The translations under genes and the position numbers were made by a program. The notes beneath the pieces are model-generated. The model saw only the letters and a list, made by a program, of their open reading frames with translations, searched no databases and was not told the origin of the DNA. Shown here piece after piece: positions 1,213 through 37,163 of a DNA stretch of 43,346 nt (position 1 is its first letter; each line of letters starts with the position of its first letter). The stretch comes from a phage: the NCBI GenBank assembly GCA_031490115.1, contig GCA_031490115.1_4355.1. One strand, written 5' to 3'.

Positions 1213-1506
1213 TTATTTATGACGCCAGATGTATTGTCGTCTCTGCGGTTTAGTCGGAATATCATCGTATCCGAGCGATTTCCAGTAATTAAATAACCGA
1301 TTAGCGATTGCCGCGCGTTCCTGTGTTTTAAACTCTCCTAGATTCACGGCCTTTCCGTTCTGGAATCCACAGGCGCGGATAGCTTTACGCCGTTCTTGTA
1401 TCTCTGGGTACAGCACGTTACGGCGACGCTTGTGTATACGTGTCTTCGCTCTCGGTGACAGTGGCGCAAGGCCGCTTCGTTTCAGGATGTCAGTTGCAAG
1501 AGACAT
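1213..1506 (-). CDS. hypothetical basic protein
   Basis: ORF with GGAGG upstream of the ATG at 1504-1506; lysine/arginine rich; no recognisable domain. Confidence 0.45.
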   Translation of the reverse strand: MSLATDILKRSGLAPLSPRAKTRIHKRRRNVLYPEIQERRKAIRACGFQNGKAVNLGEFKTQERAAIANRLFNYWKSLGYDDIPTKPQRRQYIWRHK

Positions 1507-1694
1507 CACTCCACCCCCTCCACATGTGTAACTGACCCACAGTTCGCGCACTCAACGTAATCAGGAAACTGGTCCTTGTATTTCTGTAACTCGGCTTCAA
1601 GTTTCGCGTAATCTTCGTAAAGCACTAACACGCCCTCAACATCAGGAGTAAACCCGAATATCTGGTCGTAGGTATATCTCTGCACCATAATCAC
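1506..1694 (-). CDS. hypothetical small protein with C-terminal CxxC
   Basis: 62-aa ORF packed head to tail with its neighbours. Confidence 0.4.
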   Translation of the reverse strand: MIMVQRYTYDQIFGFTPDVEGVLVLYEDYAKLEAELQKYKDQFPDYVECANCGSVTHVEGVE

Positions 1695-3283: not shown

Positions 3284-3474
3284 TTCACCCCTTTGAATTT
3301 AAAATTGTTGCCGATGAGTGTTAAATTATCTCTGAAAGCGTAACCATGTTTCTTTCGTACAAGACCCCATACGTCTACAGCGGTACTATATTCATCCTCA
3401 TTCTGGGTAACTATTACGTACTGTCCGCCGCGTTTTGTTTTAACCAACTGACCCTTCTTAAACATAACCCTCAC
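3280..3474 (-). CDS. hypothetical small protein
   Basis: 64-aa ORF, first gene after the promoter at 3501-3529. Confidence 0.45.
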   Translation of the reverse strand: MRVMFKKGQLVKTKRGGQYVIVTQNEDEYSTAVDVWGLVRKKHGYAFRDNLTLIGNNFKFKGVK

Positions 3475-3500
3475 TCCTTATGTCTCGTTTCGATAAGTGA

Positions 3501-3529
3501 ATAGTATCCTATTATGTTGGGGTGTGCAA
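3501..3529 (-). promoter_or_regulatory. sigma70-like promoter (TTGCAC-N17-TACTAT), leftward
   Basis: -35 is the reverse complement of 3524-3529, -10 the reverse complement of 3501-3506, 17-nt spacer. Confidence 0.6.
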
Positions 3530-3588
3530 GATAATAGTTACGTTGCCGTTGTGATTCTTTCGTTTCTTAAAAGAGTACGCAACGCAGC

Positions 3589-3608
3589 GGGTGGGCTTTA
3601 GCCCACCC
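3589..3608 (-). promoter_or_regulatory. strong GC hairpin in the leader of the left operon
   Basis: GGGTGGGC-ttta-GCCCACCC, nested inside a longer AGAGTAC...GTACTCT dyad; about 200 nt downstream (leftward) of the copy-A promoter. Confidence 0.45.
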
Positions 3609-3691
3609 CAGCGGAGTGAAGTACTCTCTACCTTGCTTACGGCAACTATAGAAACTTTTAATTATCAGTGACTTGGATATTTAGGCGGGAT

Positions 3692-3838
3692 TAACAATAG
3701 ACTTTGACCCTTCCGAAAGCGTCAGCGGAACTACACTCAAGTGCCTAATGGCACGCGTTGCGTTCCCTGCCGCTCCGCGGTCGCTTGCGATATCTCACAA
3801 GCTCAGTGAAGCTTAGCATATTTTCAAGTAAAAGTCAA
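3692..3838 (-). repeat. copy A of a duplicated promoter-plus-leader element
   Basis: About 80 percent identical to 34856-34998. Minus-strand -35 TTGACT (3833-3838), 17-nt spacer, TGn-TAAGCT -10 (3810-3815), then a conserved leader with hairpin GTGCC-taat-GGCAC (3741-3754). Confidence 0.6.
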
Positions 3839-3885
3839 TACCAGTAGCATCTTTTGTATTTTAGTAACTTTGCGTGGTGTTTTGG

Positions 3886-3914
3886 TTGCTTTTACAAAGT
3901 TACCGCCTTATACT
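3886..3914 (+). promoter_or_regulatory. candidate sigma70-like early promoter, rightward
   Basis: TTGCTT-N17-TATACT, 30 nt upstream of the first plus-strand gene. Confidence 0.4.
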
Positions 3915-3943
3915 TCGATACATATTACACAGGAGAGCGCGAG

Positions 3944-4114
3944 ATGACTATCAATGAAGTTGCAGAATTAATCGGCGTCACCCGCCAGACGATCAATAAC
4001 TGGATTAAGAGTGGAAAGTTTCCTGATTGCAGCGTTAAAGTAATGGGGCGCCGTTTACCAGGAACATTTGACCGTAATAAAGTTGAAGCATGGATTAAGG
4101 AGAACGTGAAATGA
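3944..4114 (+). CDS. HTH DNA-binding protein (AlpA/Xis-like)
   Basis: MTINEVAELIGVTRQTINNWIKSGKFP... matches the AlpA/excisionase-type HTH pattern; AGGAGAG 8 nt upstream. Confidence 0.6.
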   Translation: MTINEVAELIGVTRQTINNWIKSGKFPDCSVKVMGRRLPGTFDRNKVEAWIKENVK

Positions 4115-34745: not shown

Positions 34746-34761
34746 GTTTCCCCTTTCTCGA

Positions 34762-34789
34762 TAAGTAAAGCCCCGCCTTAAAGCGGGGC
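34762..34789 (-). terminator. terminator-like hairpin in the leader of the late operon
   Basis: GCCCCGC-N6-GCGGGGC followed on the minus strand by UUUACUUAU, about 185 nt downstream of the copy-B promoter and 25 nt upstream of the Rz start. Confidence 0.45.
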
Positions 34790-34855
34790 GCTAGTCCTTA
34801 TCATTTAAACATAGAAACGGCGTAATCTCAGTAAATCAGTTACTTTTTACACAAG

Positions 34856-34998
34856 CAATAGAGCACGGCCCTTCAGAACGCGTCAGCGTAACTACACTCA
34901 GGACTTACGTCCCGCTCCGTTACCTGCCCGCGCCGCGGTCGTTTGTTCATACTTCACAAGCTCAGGTGGAGCTTAGCACATTTTTAGTGAAAAGTCAA
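34856..34998 (-). repeat. copy B of the duplicated promoter-plus-leader element
   Basis: Minus-strand -35 TTGACT (34993-34998), 17-nt spacer, TGn-TAAGCT (34970-34975); conserved leader; hairpin GGAC-ttac-GTCC (34901-34912) replaces copy A's GTGCC-taat-GGCAC. Confidence 0.6.
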
Positions 34999-35064
34999 CT
35001 ATTCGAATAGTTTATTCCAACATTTACAATTCGGTGGAATAACTGGAATACGTAAATAAATAGT

Positions 35065-35093
35065 TTGCACACCCCAATATAATAGGGTACTAT
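35065..35093 (+). promoter_or_regulatory. sigma70-like promoter (TTGCAC-N17-TACTAT), rightward
   Basis: A 28/29-nt match to the promoter at 26218-26246. Confidence 0.6.
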
Positions 35094-35120
35094 TCATTCT
35101 ATCGAACCGAGGAGGCCGTC

Positions 35121-35174
35121 ATGTTAGTCGTTATTTCAGTAGTAATTGCAGTTGATGCGGTGATGTTTCTTTAG
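35121..35174 (+). CDS. 17-aa hydrophobic mini-ORF (leader peptide candidate)
   Basis: GAGGAGG 6 nt upstream of ATG; MLVVISVVIAVDAVMFL. Confidence 0.25.
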   Translation: MLVVISVVIAVDAVMFL

Positions 35175-35218
35175 GCTTGTAGTGGTATTGGTGAAATTGA
35201 CACGGGTAATGGTGAACT

Positions 35219-35563
35219 ATGAAATATATTAAATTAGCAGTAGCGGGTGTTGTAGCCGTCTGTTTGAGTGGTTGCGTAAGGTCGTTGCCAGACCCAGCTT
35301 TACAGGTTTATCAGGCGGGGGATACAACGGCAACATGTAATCAGTTACTATCGAGAATCGCCACGACAAAACAAGCTCAAGCCAACGCTACGCACCGTGT
35401 TAATAAGCAAATAGGTACTAACGTTGTACTCGGTGTTACAGGCGCATTCCTGATTGTTCCGCTGTTCTTTATGGACACAGGCGCTGGGCCTTCTATGGAC
35501 GAGATGGCAGCCGGTAATCGTCTGTCGCAGTTACAACAAACATACGACGAGAAATGCAAATGA
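35219..35563 (+). CDS. lipoprotein (superinfection-exclusion candidate)
   Basis: Signal peptide with lipobox LSGC, plus a C-proximal hydrophobic segment; own promoter and terminator; opposite strand to the surrounding structural genes. Confidence 0.55.
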   Translation: MKYIKLAVAGVVAVCLSGCVRSLPDPALQVYQAGDTTATCNQLLSRIATTKQAQANATHRVNKQIGTNVVLGVTGAFLIVPLFFMDTGAGPSMDEMAAGNRLSQLQQTYDEKCK

Positions 35564-35631
35564 CAAATAGTGTGATGTTTTATGTTGTTTTGTGGGTATC
35601 GGCTGCGGTTATCACCGCGATGTTCATATAA
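35560..35631 (+). CDS. 23-aa hydrophobic peptide
   Basis: ATGA-coupled to the lipoprotein gene. Confidence 0.25.
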   Translation: MTNSVMFYVVLWVSAAVITAMFI

Positions 35632-35635
35632 AAAT

Positions 35636-35658
35636 AAAGCCCCGTAAGGGGCCTTTTA
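35636..35658. terminator. bidirectional terminator
   Basis: AGCCCC-gtaa-GGGGC followed by CTTTT. Confidence 0.6.
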
Positions 35659-36120: not shown

Positions 36121-37163
36121 TATTCCCCTTTCAGATAATCAGCAACACGTTTATCGAGTTCCGCCATCTGCTTAAGCGTGAGCGGATTCCCGAAACCATC
36201 TACAGATATTACGCGAAACTCTTCCGGCGATATACCGCTGTTACGGAAAATCTTACCTCGCACCGGGCCGAGCGCCTGGTCCTGAAACCACGCCGGTTGT
36301 TGTTTCAGGAACTCGTAATAGGTGGTGTCTGCGCTTACCTGAGTACCGCCGTCCGCACCCTTAGCCGCACGTTTTGCGCCTTTATCGAGGAAGTCGAACT
36401 CGGAACTGATTACCGGAGCCGTGCACGACCGGCAGTTCGGATGGGCTGGTGGCATCGGACCTTTACCGATTTCCCACGTCATTCCGTCTCTGGTCCTGCA
36501 AGTCGTGCTGGTACGGCTGTCCAGCGTCGACACCCACTCGTATTTCTCGATGATGTCGTCGTTCTGGCGGTACGTCTCGTTACGTGCTTCGTTGGACACG
36601 TGGGACAGCGCAGTACGGATTACTGTAGCCGCGTATTTCTCCGATACGTCAGCCAGCCCGCCTTTACCGACTACTTCCGTAACAATCTGCCGTGTTGTCT
36701 TACCCTGAACAAAGCCCATCTTAACGCCGGTTACAAGACGTGCTACTTCCGTTTCACCCCAGCCCGACATCAGCTTGGTGAAATCAACGGGCTTGTCGCT
36801 CAATGATAATGGTTGAAACTCGGCAGCGGCCCATACCTGTTCTGCTGTAGGCGTAACAAATTCCGCGTCTACGTTGGCGGTCAGTGTCTTTACGTTCCAC
36901 TCAGCCTCATACGCCGCCAGTTCCTTAAGGTCTTCTGTCAGCTTTGTCTGCCAGTCGCCCGTAAGCCCCACCAGTGCTTCTTCAAGGTCGCGTAACAATT
37001 TATTCAGTCGGGCAGTGCTTCGCCCGTCGTCACCGAATAACAGCACCTGCCGTTTTATTTCGTCCCGCATCTCCTGAATGAACGGTGCTAGGTCTTTCAC
37101 TTCACCAGATGCGGTGCGTTGCAGCCAAATCTGGTGGCTGATTAGTGATGTCAGTAAGCTCAT
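36120..37163 (-). CDS. head morphogenesis / minor head protein (Mu gpF / SPP1 gp7 family)
   Basis: LDSRTSTTCRTRDGMTWE...HPNCRSCTAP is the hallmark motif of this family; lies downstream of portal. Confidence 0.75.
   Translation of the reverse strand: MSLLTSLISHQIWLQRTASGEVKDLAPFIQEMRDEIKRQVLLFGDDGRSTARLNKLLRDLEEALVGLTGDWQTKLTEDLKELAAYEAEWNVKTLTANVDAEFVTPTAEQVWAAAEFQPLSLSDKPVDFTKLMSGWGETEVARLVTGVKMGFVQGKTTRQIVTEVVGKGGLADVSEKYAATVIRTALSHVSNEARNETYRQNDDIIEKYEWVSTLDSRTSTTCRTRDGMTWEIGKGPMPPAHPNCRSCTAPVISSEFDFLDKGAKRAAKGADGGTQVSADTTYYEFLKQQPAWFQDQALGPVRGKIFRNSGISPEEFRVISVDGFGNPLTLKQMAELDKRVADYLKGE

Follow-up and report, generated by a model that had tools for sequence, protein, structure and literature searches.

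What function is served by a promoter and leader that a phage carries in two diverged copies, each ahead of late genes? The question is raised by the DNA analysed here (assembly GCA_031490115.1; hereafter the window), whose 43,346 bp correspond to the complete genome of a Kagunavirus (subfamily Guernseyvirinae), a siphophage of Escherichia coli. The element in question occurs on the minus strand as copy A (3838-3693) and copy B (34998-34854), and gene content places each copy at the head of co-directional late genes. Phages vB_Eco_K-01, phiEc3 and phiEc4 are 99% identical to the copy A region. When this region was compared by blastn with the whole window, copy B (34998-34856) was retrieved at 76% identity over 147 columns (expectation value, E, 4e-21), the next-best match having an E of 0.04, and a global alignment of the two copies gave 115 identities in 147 positions (78%). 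A first-pass annotation of the sequence had placed both copies correctly, strand included, although its figure of about 80% identity was slightly too high.

Both copies open with TTGACT-N17-TGCTAAGCT. The pattern TTGAC-N15-TGNTAAGCT is exact at 3838-3810 and 34998-34970, and the window has no other mismatch-free site. Each copy carries the features by which a sigma-70 extended -10 promoter is predicted, that is, a -35 close to TTGACA, a 17-bp spacer, a TGn extension and the A2 and T6 of the -10 hexamer. The earlier description of a near-consensus -35 with an extended -10 is exact for both copies as regards the motif, but the hexamer TAAGCT matches TATAAT at only 3 of 6 positions, retaining A2 and T6 next to the TG extension, and because of this weak hexamer neither promoter was listed by a generic promoter scan. 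Among homologues neither TG nor TAAGCT changes, whereas the base n of TGn may be C, A or G, the pattern expected of an extended -10 promoter. The spacer is AT-rich, moderately conserved and without a dyad. The promoter B motif is kept in all B-type copies, and the predicted start sites lie at about 3804-3803 for copy A and 34963-34962 for copy B.

The fold of the leader RNA

Sequences for folding came from GenBank phages, IMG/VR and metagenomes, and comprised 26 distinct A-type and B-type variants together with a divergent class C. Single-sequence folds and RNAalifold give one common architecture, in which the RNA starts 2-3 nt past the predicted start site (+2/+3) in every copy and class, and the folded part takes up the first 95-110 nt of the predicted transcript. 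Two hairpins, P1 and then P2, are set apart by GA (or A) and together cover 3802-3713 in copy A and 34961-34874 in copy B. From base to tip, P2 comprises a CCG/CGG base, a bulged C, the segment GGNGC/GCN'UU with two G.U pairs, one or two G-C pairs, CAG/CUG, a bulged G, GNAAC/GUUN'C, an internal loop (GGAG opposite AGUGUA) and a variable apical hairpin, the loop of which reads GUAA, GUUA, AUUA or CUCG. Located 3' of P2 is the tail GGAAGGGYC-N5-UCUAUUG, in which GGAAGGGYC and YUAUUG hardly vary between classes A, B and C. The hairpin previously seen to keep its shape but not its sequence between the copies is therefore genuine, being merely the tip of a much larger conserved fold.

The pairing is backed by covariation. 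In the alignment of A and B types (39 distinct sequences) 95.0% of cells were paired, against 31-41% in slid controls, and double changes affected 12 of the 30 pairs; with class C added (35 distinct sequences) the corresponding values were 93.4%, 26-42% and 19 of 30. None of 500 shuffles equalled either alignment, be it in percentage paired, in compensatory pairs and cells or in covariation score. Single pairs rotate through three Watson-Crick types (C-G, U-A and A-U at position 3 of P2b; U-A, A-U and G-C in P2d), and with class C included P1 shows double changes at four of its six pairs. Class C keeps the P2 base and the tail, its P1 being an unrelated hairpin (ACGCU-UUC-AGCGU) and the middle of its P2 a different 12-bp helix. 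Although the alignments were fitted to the model, which favours structure, and the sequences are mutually related, both the slid controls and the variety of pair types speak for a real signal.

The selected strand is identified by two neighbouring G.U pairs, which 32 of the 34 sequences possess. On the other strand these pairs would be A.C mismatches, so the selected object is the minus-strand transcript and not a DNA dyad. Of the two possibilities that the first-pass annotation had left side by side, selection on RNA structure is thus upheld, the proposed count of compensatory pairs having given a pattern that extends over about 30 bp in more than 35 distinct sequences, while a dyad binding site is ruled out by near-invariant pairs that fold only in the transcript strand. 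Almost no credence can be given to a recent neutral duplication, or a DNA-level dyad operator, devoid of any RNA function. A duplication did occur, as the lineage restriction of copy A implies, and palindromic operator-like sites are common at the other promoters of the window phage. However, the differences between the copies are not the random, non-compensatory ones that had been named as evidence against RNA selection; they are, like those among homologues, compensatory far beyond the shuffle and slide controls, the G.U pairs exclude a DNA dyad, and the fold is kept in class C with an unrelated P1 and different P2 sequences.

A covariance model of the element (R1) recognized copy B (34965-34854) with 121.7 bits (E 4.5e-30) and copy A (3806-3693) with 93.7 bits (E 1.5e-22). 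The copy A fold has a free energy of -45.2 kcal/mol (z -2.87), and none of 200 shuffles was equally stable. The copy B of the window folds no better than its shuffles (z -0.17) because of two private substitutions that break pairs, namely CAAACG for CAAGCG in P1 (34941-34946), where the consensus of the relatives reads ACAAGC and the window phage ACAAAC, and CUG for CGG at the P2 base (34874-34876). No database record has the full set of the window's differences over the 261-nt copy B region, the best match being 98.1% identical; the private substitutions could be real drift or sequencing errors.

Other ways of reading the same letters were considered and discarded. A local hairpin CCGC-GGN-GCGG, taken as a separate stem, has a third loop base that changes in concert with a distant one (C-G, U-A, A-U), evidence in favour of the long-range P2b pairing. 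A K-turn, a sarcin-ricin loop, an RfaH ops element, a CsrA GGA pair and a boxA in the tail were looked for by eye, and none was conserved across classes. Finally, the tail might have been the start of a mini open reading frame (ORF), with GGAAGGG as ribosome-binding site and a UUG 10 nt further on, but the reading frame is of random length (1-19 codons) and some variants have UUA or CUG in place of the UUG.

Distribution of the element among phages

The suggested search of other phage genomes was rewarding. B-type copies were found in 181 records of phages of Escherichia, Salmonella, Raoultella and Shigella, with 177 of them at 95-99% identity over 261 nt. Identity between the window phage and Jerseyvirus FSL SP-101 amounts to 97.9% in the RNA core, 94.8% in the linker and 97.1% in the terminator hairpin, as against 72-84% in the Rz, scaffold, capsid and head-morphogenesis genes, the copy B leader being better conserved than the capsid gene; for the flanking genes the range is 72-86%. 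A-type copies are confined to some Kagunavirus lineages and are more diverse than the B type. At the A locus, K1G and FSL SP-101 have a different promoter and no element, and nevertheless have the downstream leader in common, which indicates that promoter and RNA move as one cassette.

Upstream of Rz, other Guernseyvirinae present class C, structured leaders D or E, or a class F promoter with DNA palindromes. Classes D, E and F could not be reliably aligned and are kept as possible distant relatives or replacements. The leader classes do not track genus boundaries.

Several observations concern these regulatory regions more generally. Class F relatives (L104, L088, L095) have no structured leader upstream of Rz, and carry repeated TTGCGAGT words and the palindrome ACTCGCAAAATTTTGCGAGT instead, in what looks like a protein-operator solution replacing the RNA module. 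The A locus of K1G (L065, about 36775-36805) holds the B-type terminator hairpin in inverted orientation (AGCGCCCCGCTTTATGGCGGGGCTTTA, opposite strand), a sign of module shuffling between the two regulatory regions. The perfect palindrome CTATTCGAATAG next to promoter B is kept in B-type copies and absent at copy A, and may be an activator or repressor site for this late promoter; class D relatives have GGAATAAATTATTCC upstream of their own promoter. In the GenBank phages Schulenburg (L001, 4050-4325) and Shashou (L044, 433-540), small hypothetical proteins are annotated opposite element A. In view of the RNA covariation, such ORFs are likely to be spurious.

Outside Guernseyvirinae, no relative of the element turned up in metagenomes, E. 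coli genomes, Rfam 15 or phage HK022. The whole window gave no match to Rfam 15 at gathering scores, and a permissive search of 3300-4100 returned one chance match (E 1.2); no transfer RNA or transfer-messenger RNA genes are present in the window. In a blastn search of 5,426 E. coli genomes copy B had no match, so that a host origin is not visible. A scan of metagenomes for the core pattern yielded 70 loci, with 39 covariance-model matches within 38 of them, for the most part on contigs of about 44 kb, the size of Guernseyvirinae genomes; the other 32, which had no model match at E up to 1, were treated as chance. In the literature searched there is no earlier description of the element. Judged from these sequence comparisons, it is a new, well-supported RNA family restricted to Guernseyvirinae.

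Genes and hairpins downstream of the two copies

Copy A diverges from a small gene for a helix-turn-helix (HTH) protein of the HTH_17 family and from a helicase-primase gene. Downstream of it lie small ORFs, followed by two holins and an endolysin (1137-98). The lysis cassette is where it had been placed, but the co-directional genes do not stop there: when the genome is read as a circle, they run on into terminase, portal, head morphogenesis and a Hoc-like gene. Copy B comes after a strong terminator 3' of the Hoc-like gene (35655-35636) and reads into Rz (34745-34359), the scaffold, the major head protein and the tail genes. From RNA to first gene there are about 110 nt in copy B and about 230 nt in copy A, with other elements in between. 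Features of both regions are listed in Table 1.

Table 1. Positions of the two copies' promoters and RNA parts, and of neighbouring features, in the window
Feature	Position	Strand	Basis or remark
Endolysin	637-98	-	lysis cassette 3' of copy A
Holins	1137-829 and 929-564	-	lysis cassette 3' of copy A
Second promoter-like site, TTGCAC-N17-TACTAT	3501..3529	-	repeat families D1/D2 and dyad search; between hairpin and first gene (ATG 3465)
GC hairpin downstream of copy A, GGGGUGGGC-UAAA-GCCCACCC	3589..3609	-	-22.2 kcal/mol, z -3.4
Copy A tail, AAGGGUCAAAGUCUAUUGUU, single-stranded	3693..3712	-	conservation across classes
Copy A P2	3713..3780	-	CCG/CGG base, bulged C, GGAGC/GCUUU (two G.U), CAG/CUG, GGAAC/GUUCC, internal loop, apical hairpin
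Copy A apical hairpin, GUGCC-AUUA-GGCAC	3754-3741	-	tip of P2
Copy A P1, GCUUGUGA-GAUA-UCGCAAGC	3783..3802	-	minimum-free-energy fold and covariance model alignment
Promoter A (predicted)	3810..3838	-	-35 TTGACT 3838-3833; 17-nt spacer ending TGC; -10 TAAGCT 3815-3810
HTH_17 protein, 63 aa	3923-4114	+	Pfam E 3.7e-10; sub-threshold Phage_AlpA match, E 0.01; divergent from copy A
Terminator-like hairpin downstream of copy B, GCCCCGC-UUUAAG-GCGGGGC and UUUACUUAU	34761..34789 (stem 34789-34770)	-	terminator scan
Copy B tail, AAGGGCCGUGCUCUAUUGCU	34854..34873	-	conservation and covariance model
Copy B P2	34874..34938	-	covariance model; private C.U mismatch at base, CUG for relatives' CGG
Copy B apical hairpin, CGGGAC-GUAA-GUCCUG	34914-34899	-	tip of P2
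Copy B P1, GCUUGU-GAAGUAUGA-ACAAAC	34941..34961	-	covariance model alignment; C.A mismatch private to window phage
Promoter B (predicted)	34970..34998	-	-35 TTGACT 34998-34993; spacer, TGC; -10 TAAGCT 34975-34970
Perfect palindrome CTATTCGAATAG	34999..35010	.	adjoins -35 of promoter B, centre near -41.5

In copy B a conserved AU-rich linker of about 60 nt leads from the RNA to a hairpin (-17.4 kcal/mol, z -3.0) with the GC-rich stem and following U tract of an intrinsic terminator, as detected by the terminator scan. A compensatory variant of its stem, GCCCUGC/GCAGGGC, is found in L008. Only 25 nt separate this hairpin from the Rz start codon (34745), which leaves no room for another promoter, so all head and tail transcription from promoter B has to pass the hairpin. 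Further terminators in the same orientation follow the capsid gene (32398-32377) and a tail gene (28014-27995).

Such an arrangement might also suggest a stand-alone small RNA gene of about 200 nt acting in trans, the late genes being served by leak-through. In either copy, a promoter and a structured RNA precede a strong hairpin situated about 170-215 nt further on; the copy B unit, linker included, is 95-98% conserved relative to FSL SP-101; and lambda pR' yields an analogous terminated 6S transcript. This role is nonetheless very improbable. The conserved unpaired segments show no complementarity to the phage genome beyond chance, the hairpin after copy A is not a terminator, and since the capsid and tail genes beyond the copy B hairpin lack a promoter to themselves, read-through has to predominate.

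The strong GC hairpin reported ahead of the first gene of the copy A operon is indeed present and stable, but is no canonical terminator, being followed by GCUGCGUUGCG without a U tract. The layout of promoter, structured leader and terminator-like hairpin, first compared with lambda pR'-tR', hence holds for copy B and not for copy A. The copy A hairpin is also found in K1G, which has no element A, and on the minus strand it is enclosed by a long-range 8-bp helix of GUUGCCGU (3646-3639) with ACGGCAAC (3549-3542). Upstream of Rz, these two words pair locally as a hairpin in the class D and E leaders, which points to a second conserved structural module in the 3' portion of such leaders.

Past the GC hairpin, the second promoter-like site (3529-3501) contains an operator-like dyad, AATAG-N4-CTATT. 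The window has six copies of this inverted repeat, against about 0.04 expected, at 2365, 3500, 7403, 9961, 26234 and 35081 (plus-strand coordinates), each inside a promoter-like site. The sites are of two types, TTGACA-N17-TATAGT before the replication genes (plus strand) and TTGCAC-N17-TACTAT before small gene blocks. The set is separate from the two promoters that carry RNA leaders, and looks like the operators of an early or middle regulator. Outside the element, 11 nt past the copy A GC hairpin, a boxA-like UACUCUUUUAAGAAA occurs at 3577-3563 (minus strand), with one extra U relative to the rrn boxA UGCUCUUUAACAA; it is found in K1G as well, and L047 has UACUCUUUAAAGAAA.

Two neighbouring genes may also be mentioned. 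Relative to K1G and FSL SP-101, the interval from the Hoc-like gene to promoter B (34999-35658) is longer by about 570 bases in the window phage, and the insert holds a divergent ORF (35219-35563; phrog_13472, hypothetical) that has a TTGCAC-type promoter-like site to itself. A 112-aa protein encoded immediately upstream of the holins (1213-1551, minus strand; phrog_9632) shows, by eye, a basic stretch followed by an AP2-type DNA-binding-like segment.

Possible modes of action

The reading tentatively preferred here, with a confidence well short of an even chance, is that the element is a cis-acting antitermination leader comparable to, but not homologous with, the put RNAs of phage HK022. The put RNAs bring about factor-independent antitermination in cis through the zinc-binding domain of the beta-prime subunit of RNA polymerase. 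In this reading each copy is a portable module in which a predicted sigma-70 extended -10 promoter is fused to a structured leader RNA, and which heads the rightward late transcription of the phage, copy A leading to the small genes, lysis, terminase and portal, and copy B to Rz, scaffold, capsid and tail genes. The invariant base of P2 (CCG/CGG, the bulged C and the two G.U pairs) abuts the conserved purine tail GGAAGGG, and the nascent RNA might act in cis, in the manner of put, on the host polymerase that has just made it. A polymerase modified in this way would become resistant to pausing and termination and could pass the hairpin at 34789-34770 and the terminators of the late blocks at 32398-32377, 28014-27995 and 35655-35636.

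Several lines of evidence make this the favoured reading. The RNA is tied to the transcript start and not to the ribosome-binding site, from which other elements separate it, and this argues against translational control of the first gene. Its portability together with its own promoter argues for action in cis, and the invariance of P2 base and tail in phages of E. coli, Salmonella and Raoultella suggests a sequence-specific partner common to these hosts. Added to this are the absence of any Q, N or other known antiterminator domain from the roughly 40 ORFs scanned, the location of essential late genes behind a terminator-like hairpin, and the existence of precedents. Both put (PMC9378689) and canT (PMC11658703) are cis-acting RNA antiterminators formed by irregular stem-loops just downstream of a promoter. 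In HK022, putL and putR likewise make two copies per genome, each behind the strong sigma-70 promoter of a long gene block. They consist of two adjacent irregular stem-loops 1-2 bases apart, with putL at the 5' end of its transcript, and they too function in an E. coli host with no phage protein known to be needed. The differences are nevertheless clear. By eye, putL has only a superficial GC-rich resemblance to the element, with other pairing partners; the element is longer (95-110 nt against about 72), its second hairpin being a single long rod of about 65 nt; and put belongs to the early operons of a phage that is temperate and lambdoid, whereas the element precedes the late blocks of a virulent siphophage. 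Tn916 canT, Bacillus EAR and pLS20 conAn2 are also structured RNAs that lie 3' of a long operon's main promoter and act in cis and processively on unrelated terminators, but they stem from Gram-positive bacteria, exceed the element in size (canT has about 450 nt) and show no sequence relationship to it. Of these, EAR has an Rfam entry, and the Rfam scan of the window gave no match.

A number of results weigh against a put-like role. Model R1 had no match in the HK022 genome at E up to 10. The copy A hairpin, followed by GCUGCGUUGCG without a U tract, is absent from the terminator scan, and hairpins at the same place in class C and D leaders also have poor U tracts, so a leader terminator is no constant partner of the RNA. 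The scan of the window detected no strong intrinsic terminator inside the copy A gene block, which moreover has internal promoter-like sites of its own. Element A is dispensable in many relatives, and the copy B of the window phage itself bears the two pair-breaking substitutions. As the leader classes ignore genus boundaries, the very high identity of B copies across genera may partly reflect recent exchange of the module, and not purifying selection by itself. In addition, the published Kagunavirus transcriptome is at gene level only and has nothing on leaders.

Another explanation, held to be less likely, is that the element is a module of stability or processing in the 5' untranslated region. 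P1 would guard the transcript against 5'-end decay and P2, an irregular duplex of about 25 bp, would be an RNase III-type site; further on, RNase E would cut the AU-rich linker and the downstream GC hairpin would cap the mature messenger RNA (mRNA). RNase III sites of phage T7 have a lower stem, an asymmetric internal loop and an upper stem, and P2 is built alike. Long, irregular hairpins of this kind are likewise repeated within the T7 genome and lie in non-coding stretches of its transcripts, although they are found between genes and lack an invariant single-stranded tail, whereas the element stands at the transcript start and has one. A 5'-terminal hairpin is seen in every class, the module is portable and its action would be in cis, and in classes A to E the first ribosome-binding site is closely preceded by a strong GC hairpin, U tract or not, which fits a 5' cap for processed mRNA better than a terminator. 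On the other hand, stabilizer hairpins and RNase III sites usually tolerate wide sequence variation, and the near-invariant P2 base, G.U pairs, bulged C and single-stranded tail over 181 genomes exceed what they usually need. Nor do the copy A genes depend on the 5' end of the leader, because a separate promoter-like site lies in between.

The same invariance may be read as a sequence-specific binding surface (AACG..., GAGUG.AG and GGAAGGG in the internal loop and tail), which leads to a third and rather doubtful possibility: a nut-like loading site for a phage or host protein that modifies the polymerase or controls the leader terminator. Dependence on a phage factor would tie late expression to an early product. 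Like the element, lambda nutL and nutR are duplicated promoter-proximal RNA signals heading two terminator-containing operons. Several small basic hypothetical ORFs are present in the early region, and the early HTH_17 gene adjoins copy A; in those relatives that were examined, an equivalent small HTH gene flanks this locus. A helix-turn-helix protein is the product of the sole early gene with a functional annotation in the published Kagunavirus transcriptome, its identity with the gene at 3923-4114 being unconfirmed. The HTH_17 protein can be regarded as a candidate regulator of the late promoters, the more so as Pseudomonas AlpA, of the same fold class, is an antiterminator at promoters with leader terminators (PMC7969949).

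However, Q and AlpA load through DNA elements of the promoter and need no conserved leader RNA (PMC7969949), which is precisely what the element has, and HTH_17 is itself a DNA-binding fold. Copy B resembles the lambda pR'-6S-tR' region in having a constitutive-looking promoter and a short leader that ends in a terminator-like hairpin before lysis or structural genes, but unlike in the lambda Q system there is no Q gene, no terminator after copy A and no conserved -10-like pause element in the early transcribed region, AAGTAT being found in copy B only. Neither does the comparison with nut extend to its parts. The element lacks a boxA (CGCUCUUA / GCUCUUUAACAA) and a boxB-type pentaloop hairpin, its apical loop being variable; the tail, which varies among CUCUAUUG, GUCUAUUG, AUCUAUUG and UAUAUUG (CUCU, GUCU, AUCU and UAUA in its changing part), is accordingly not a boxA; and the ORFs scanned hold no N homologue and no N-like or Q-like domain.

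The put-like reading, if correct, may be taken one step further, to a proposal that is more likely wrong than right: that coliphages possess a second, independent class of factor-free, polymerase-binding antiterminator RNA, unrelated to put, that drives the late genes of virulent Guernseyvirinae and is exchanged as a promoter-plus-RNA cassette. RNAs known to reprogram RNA polymerase in cis are very few, put being the sole well-understood case in E. coli. With a second, unrelated RNA that did the same to this polymerase, the control of elongation by nascent RNA could be studied by direct comparison, and synthetic biology would gain a compact and portable read-through part. Even if its role turned out to be mRNA stabilization or factor loading, the element would still be a well-supported new RNA family. 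Phages of this subfamily are widely isolated for therapy against E. coli and Salmonella, and the element, which current annotation misses, ranks with the best-conserved parts of their genomes.

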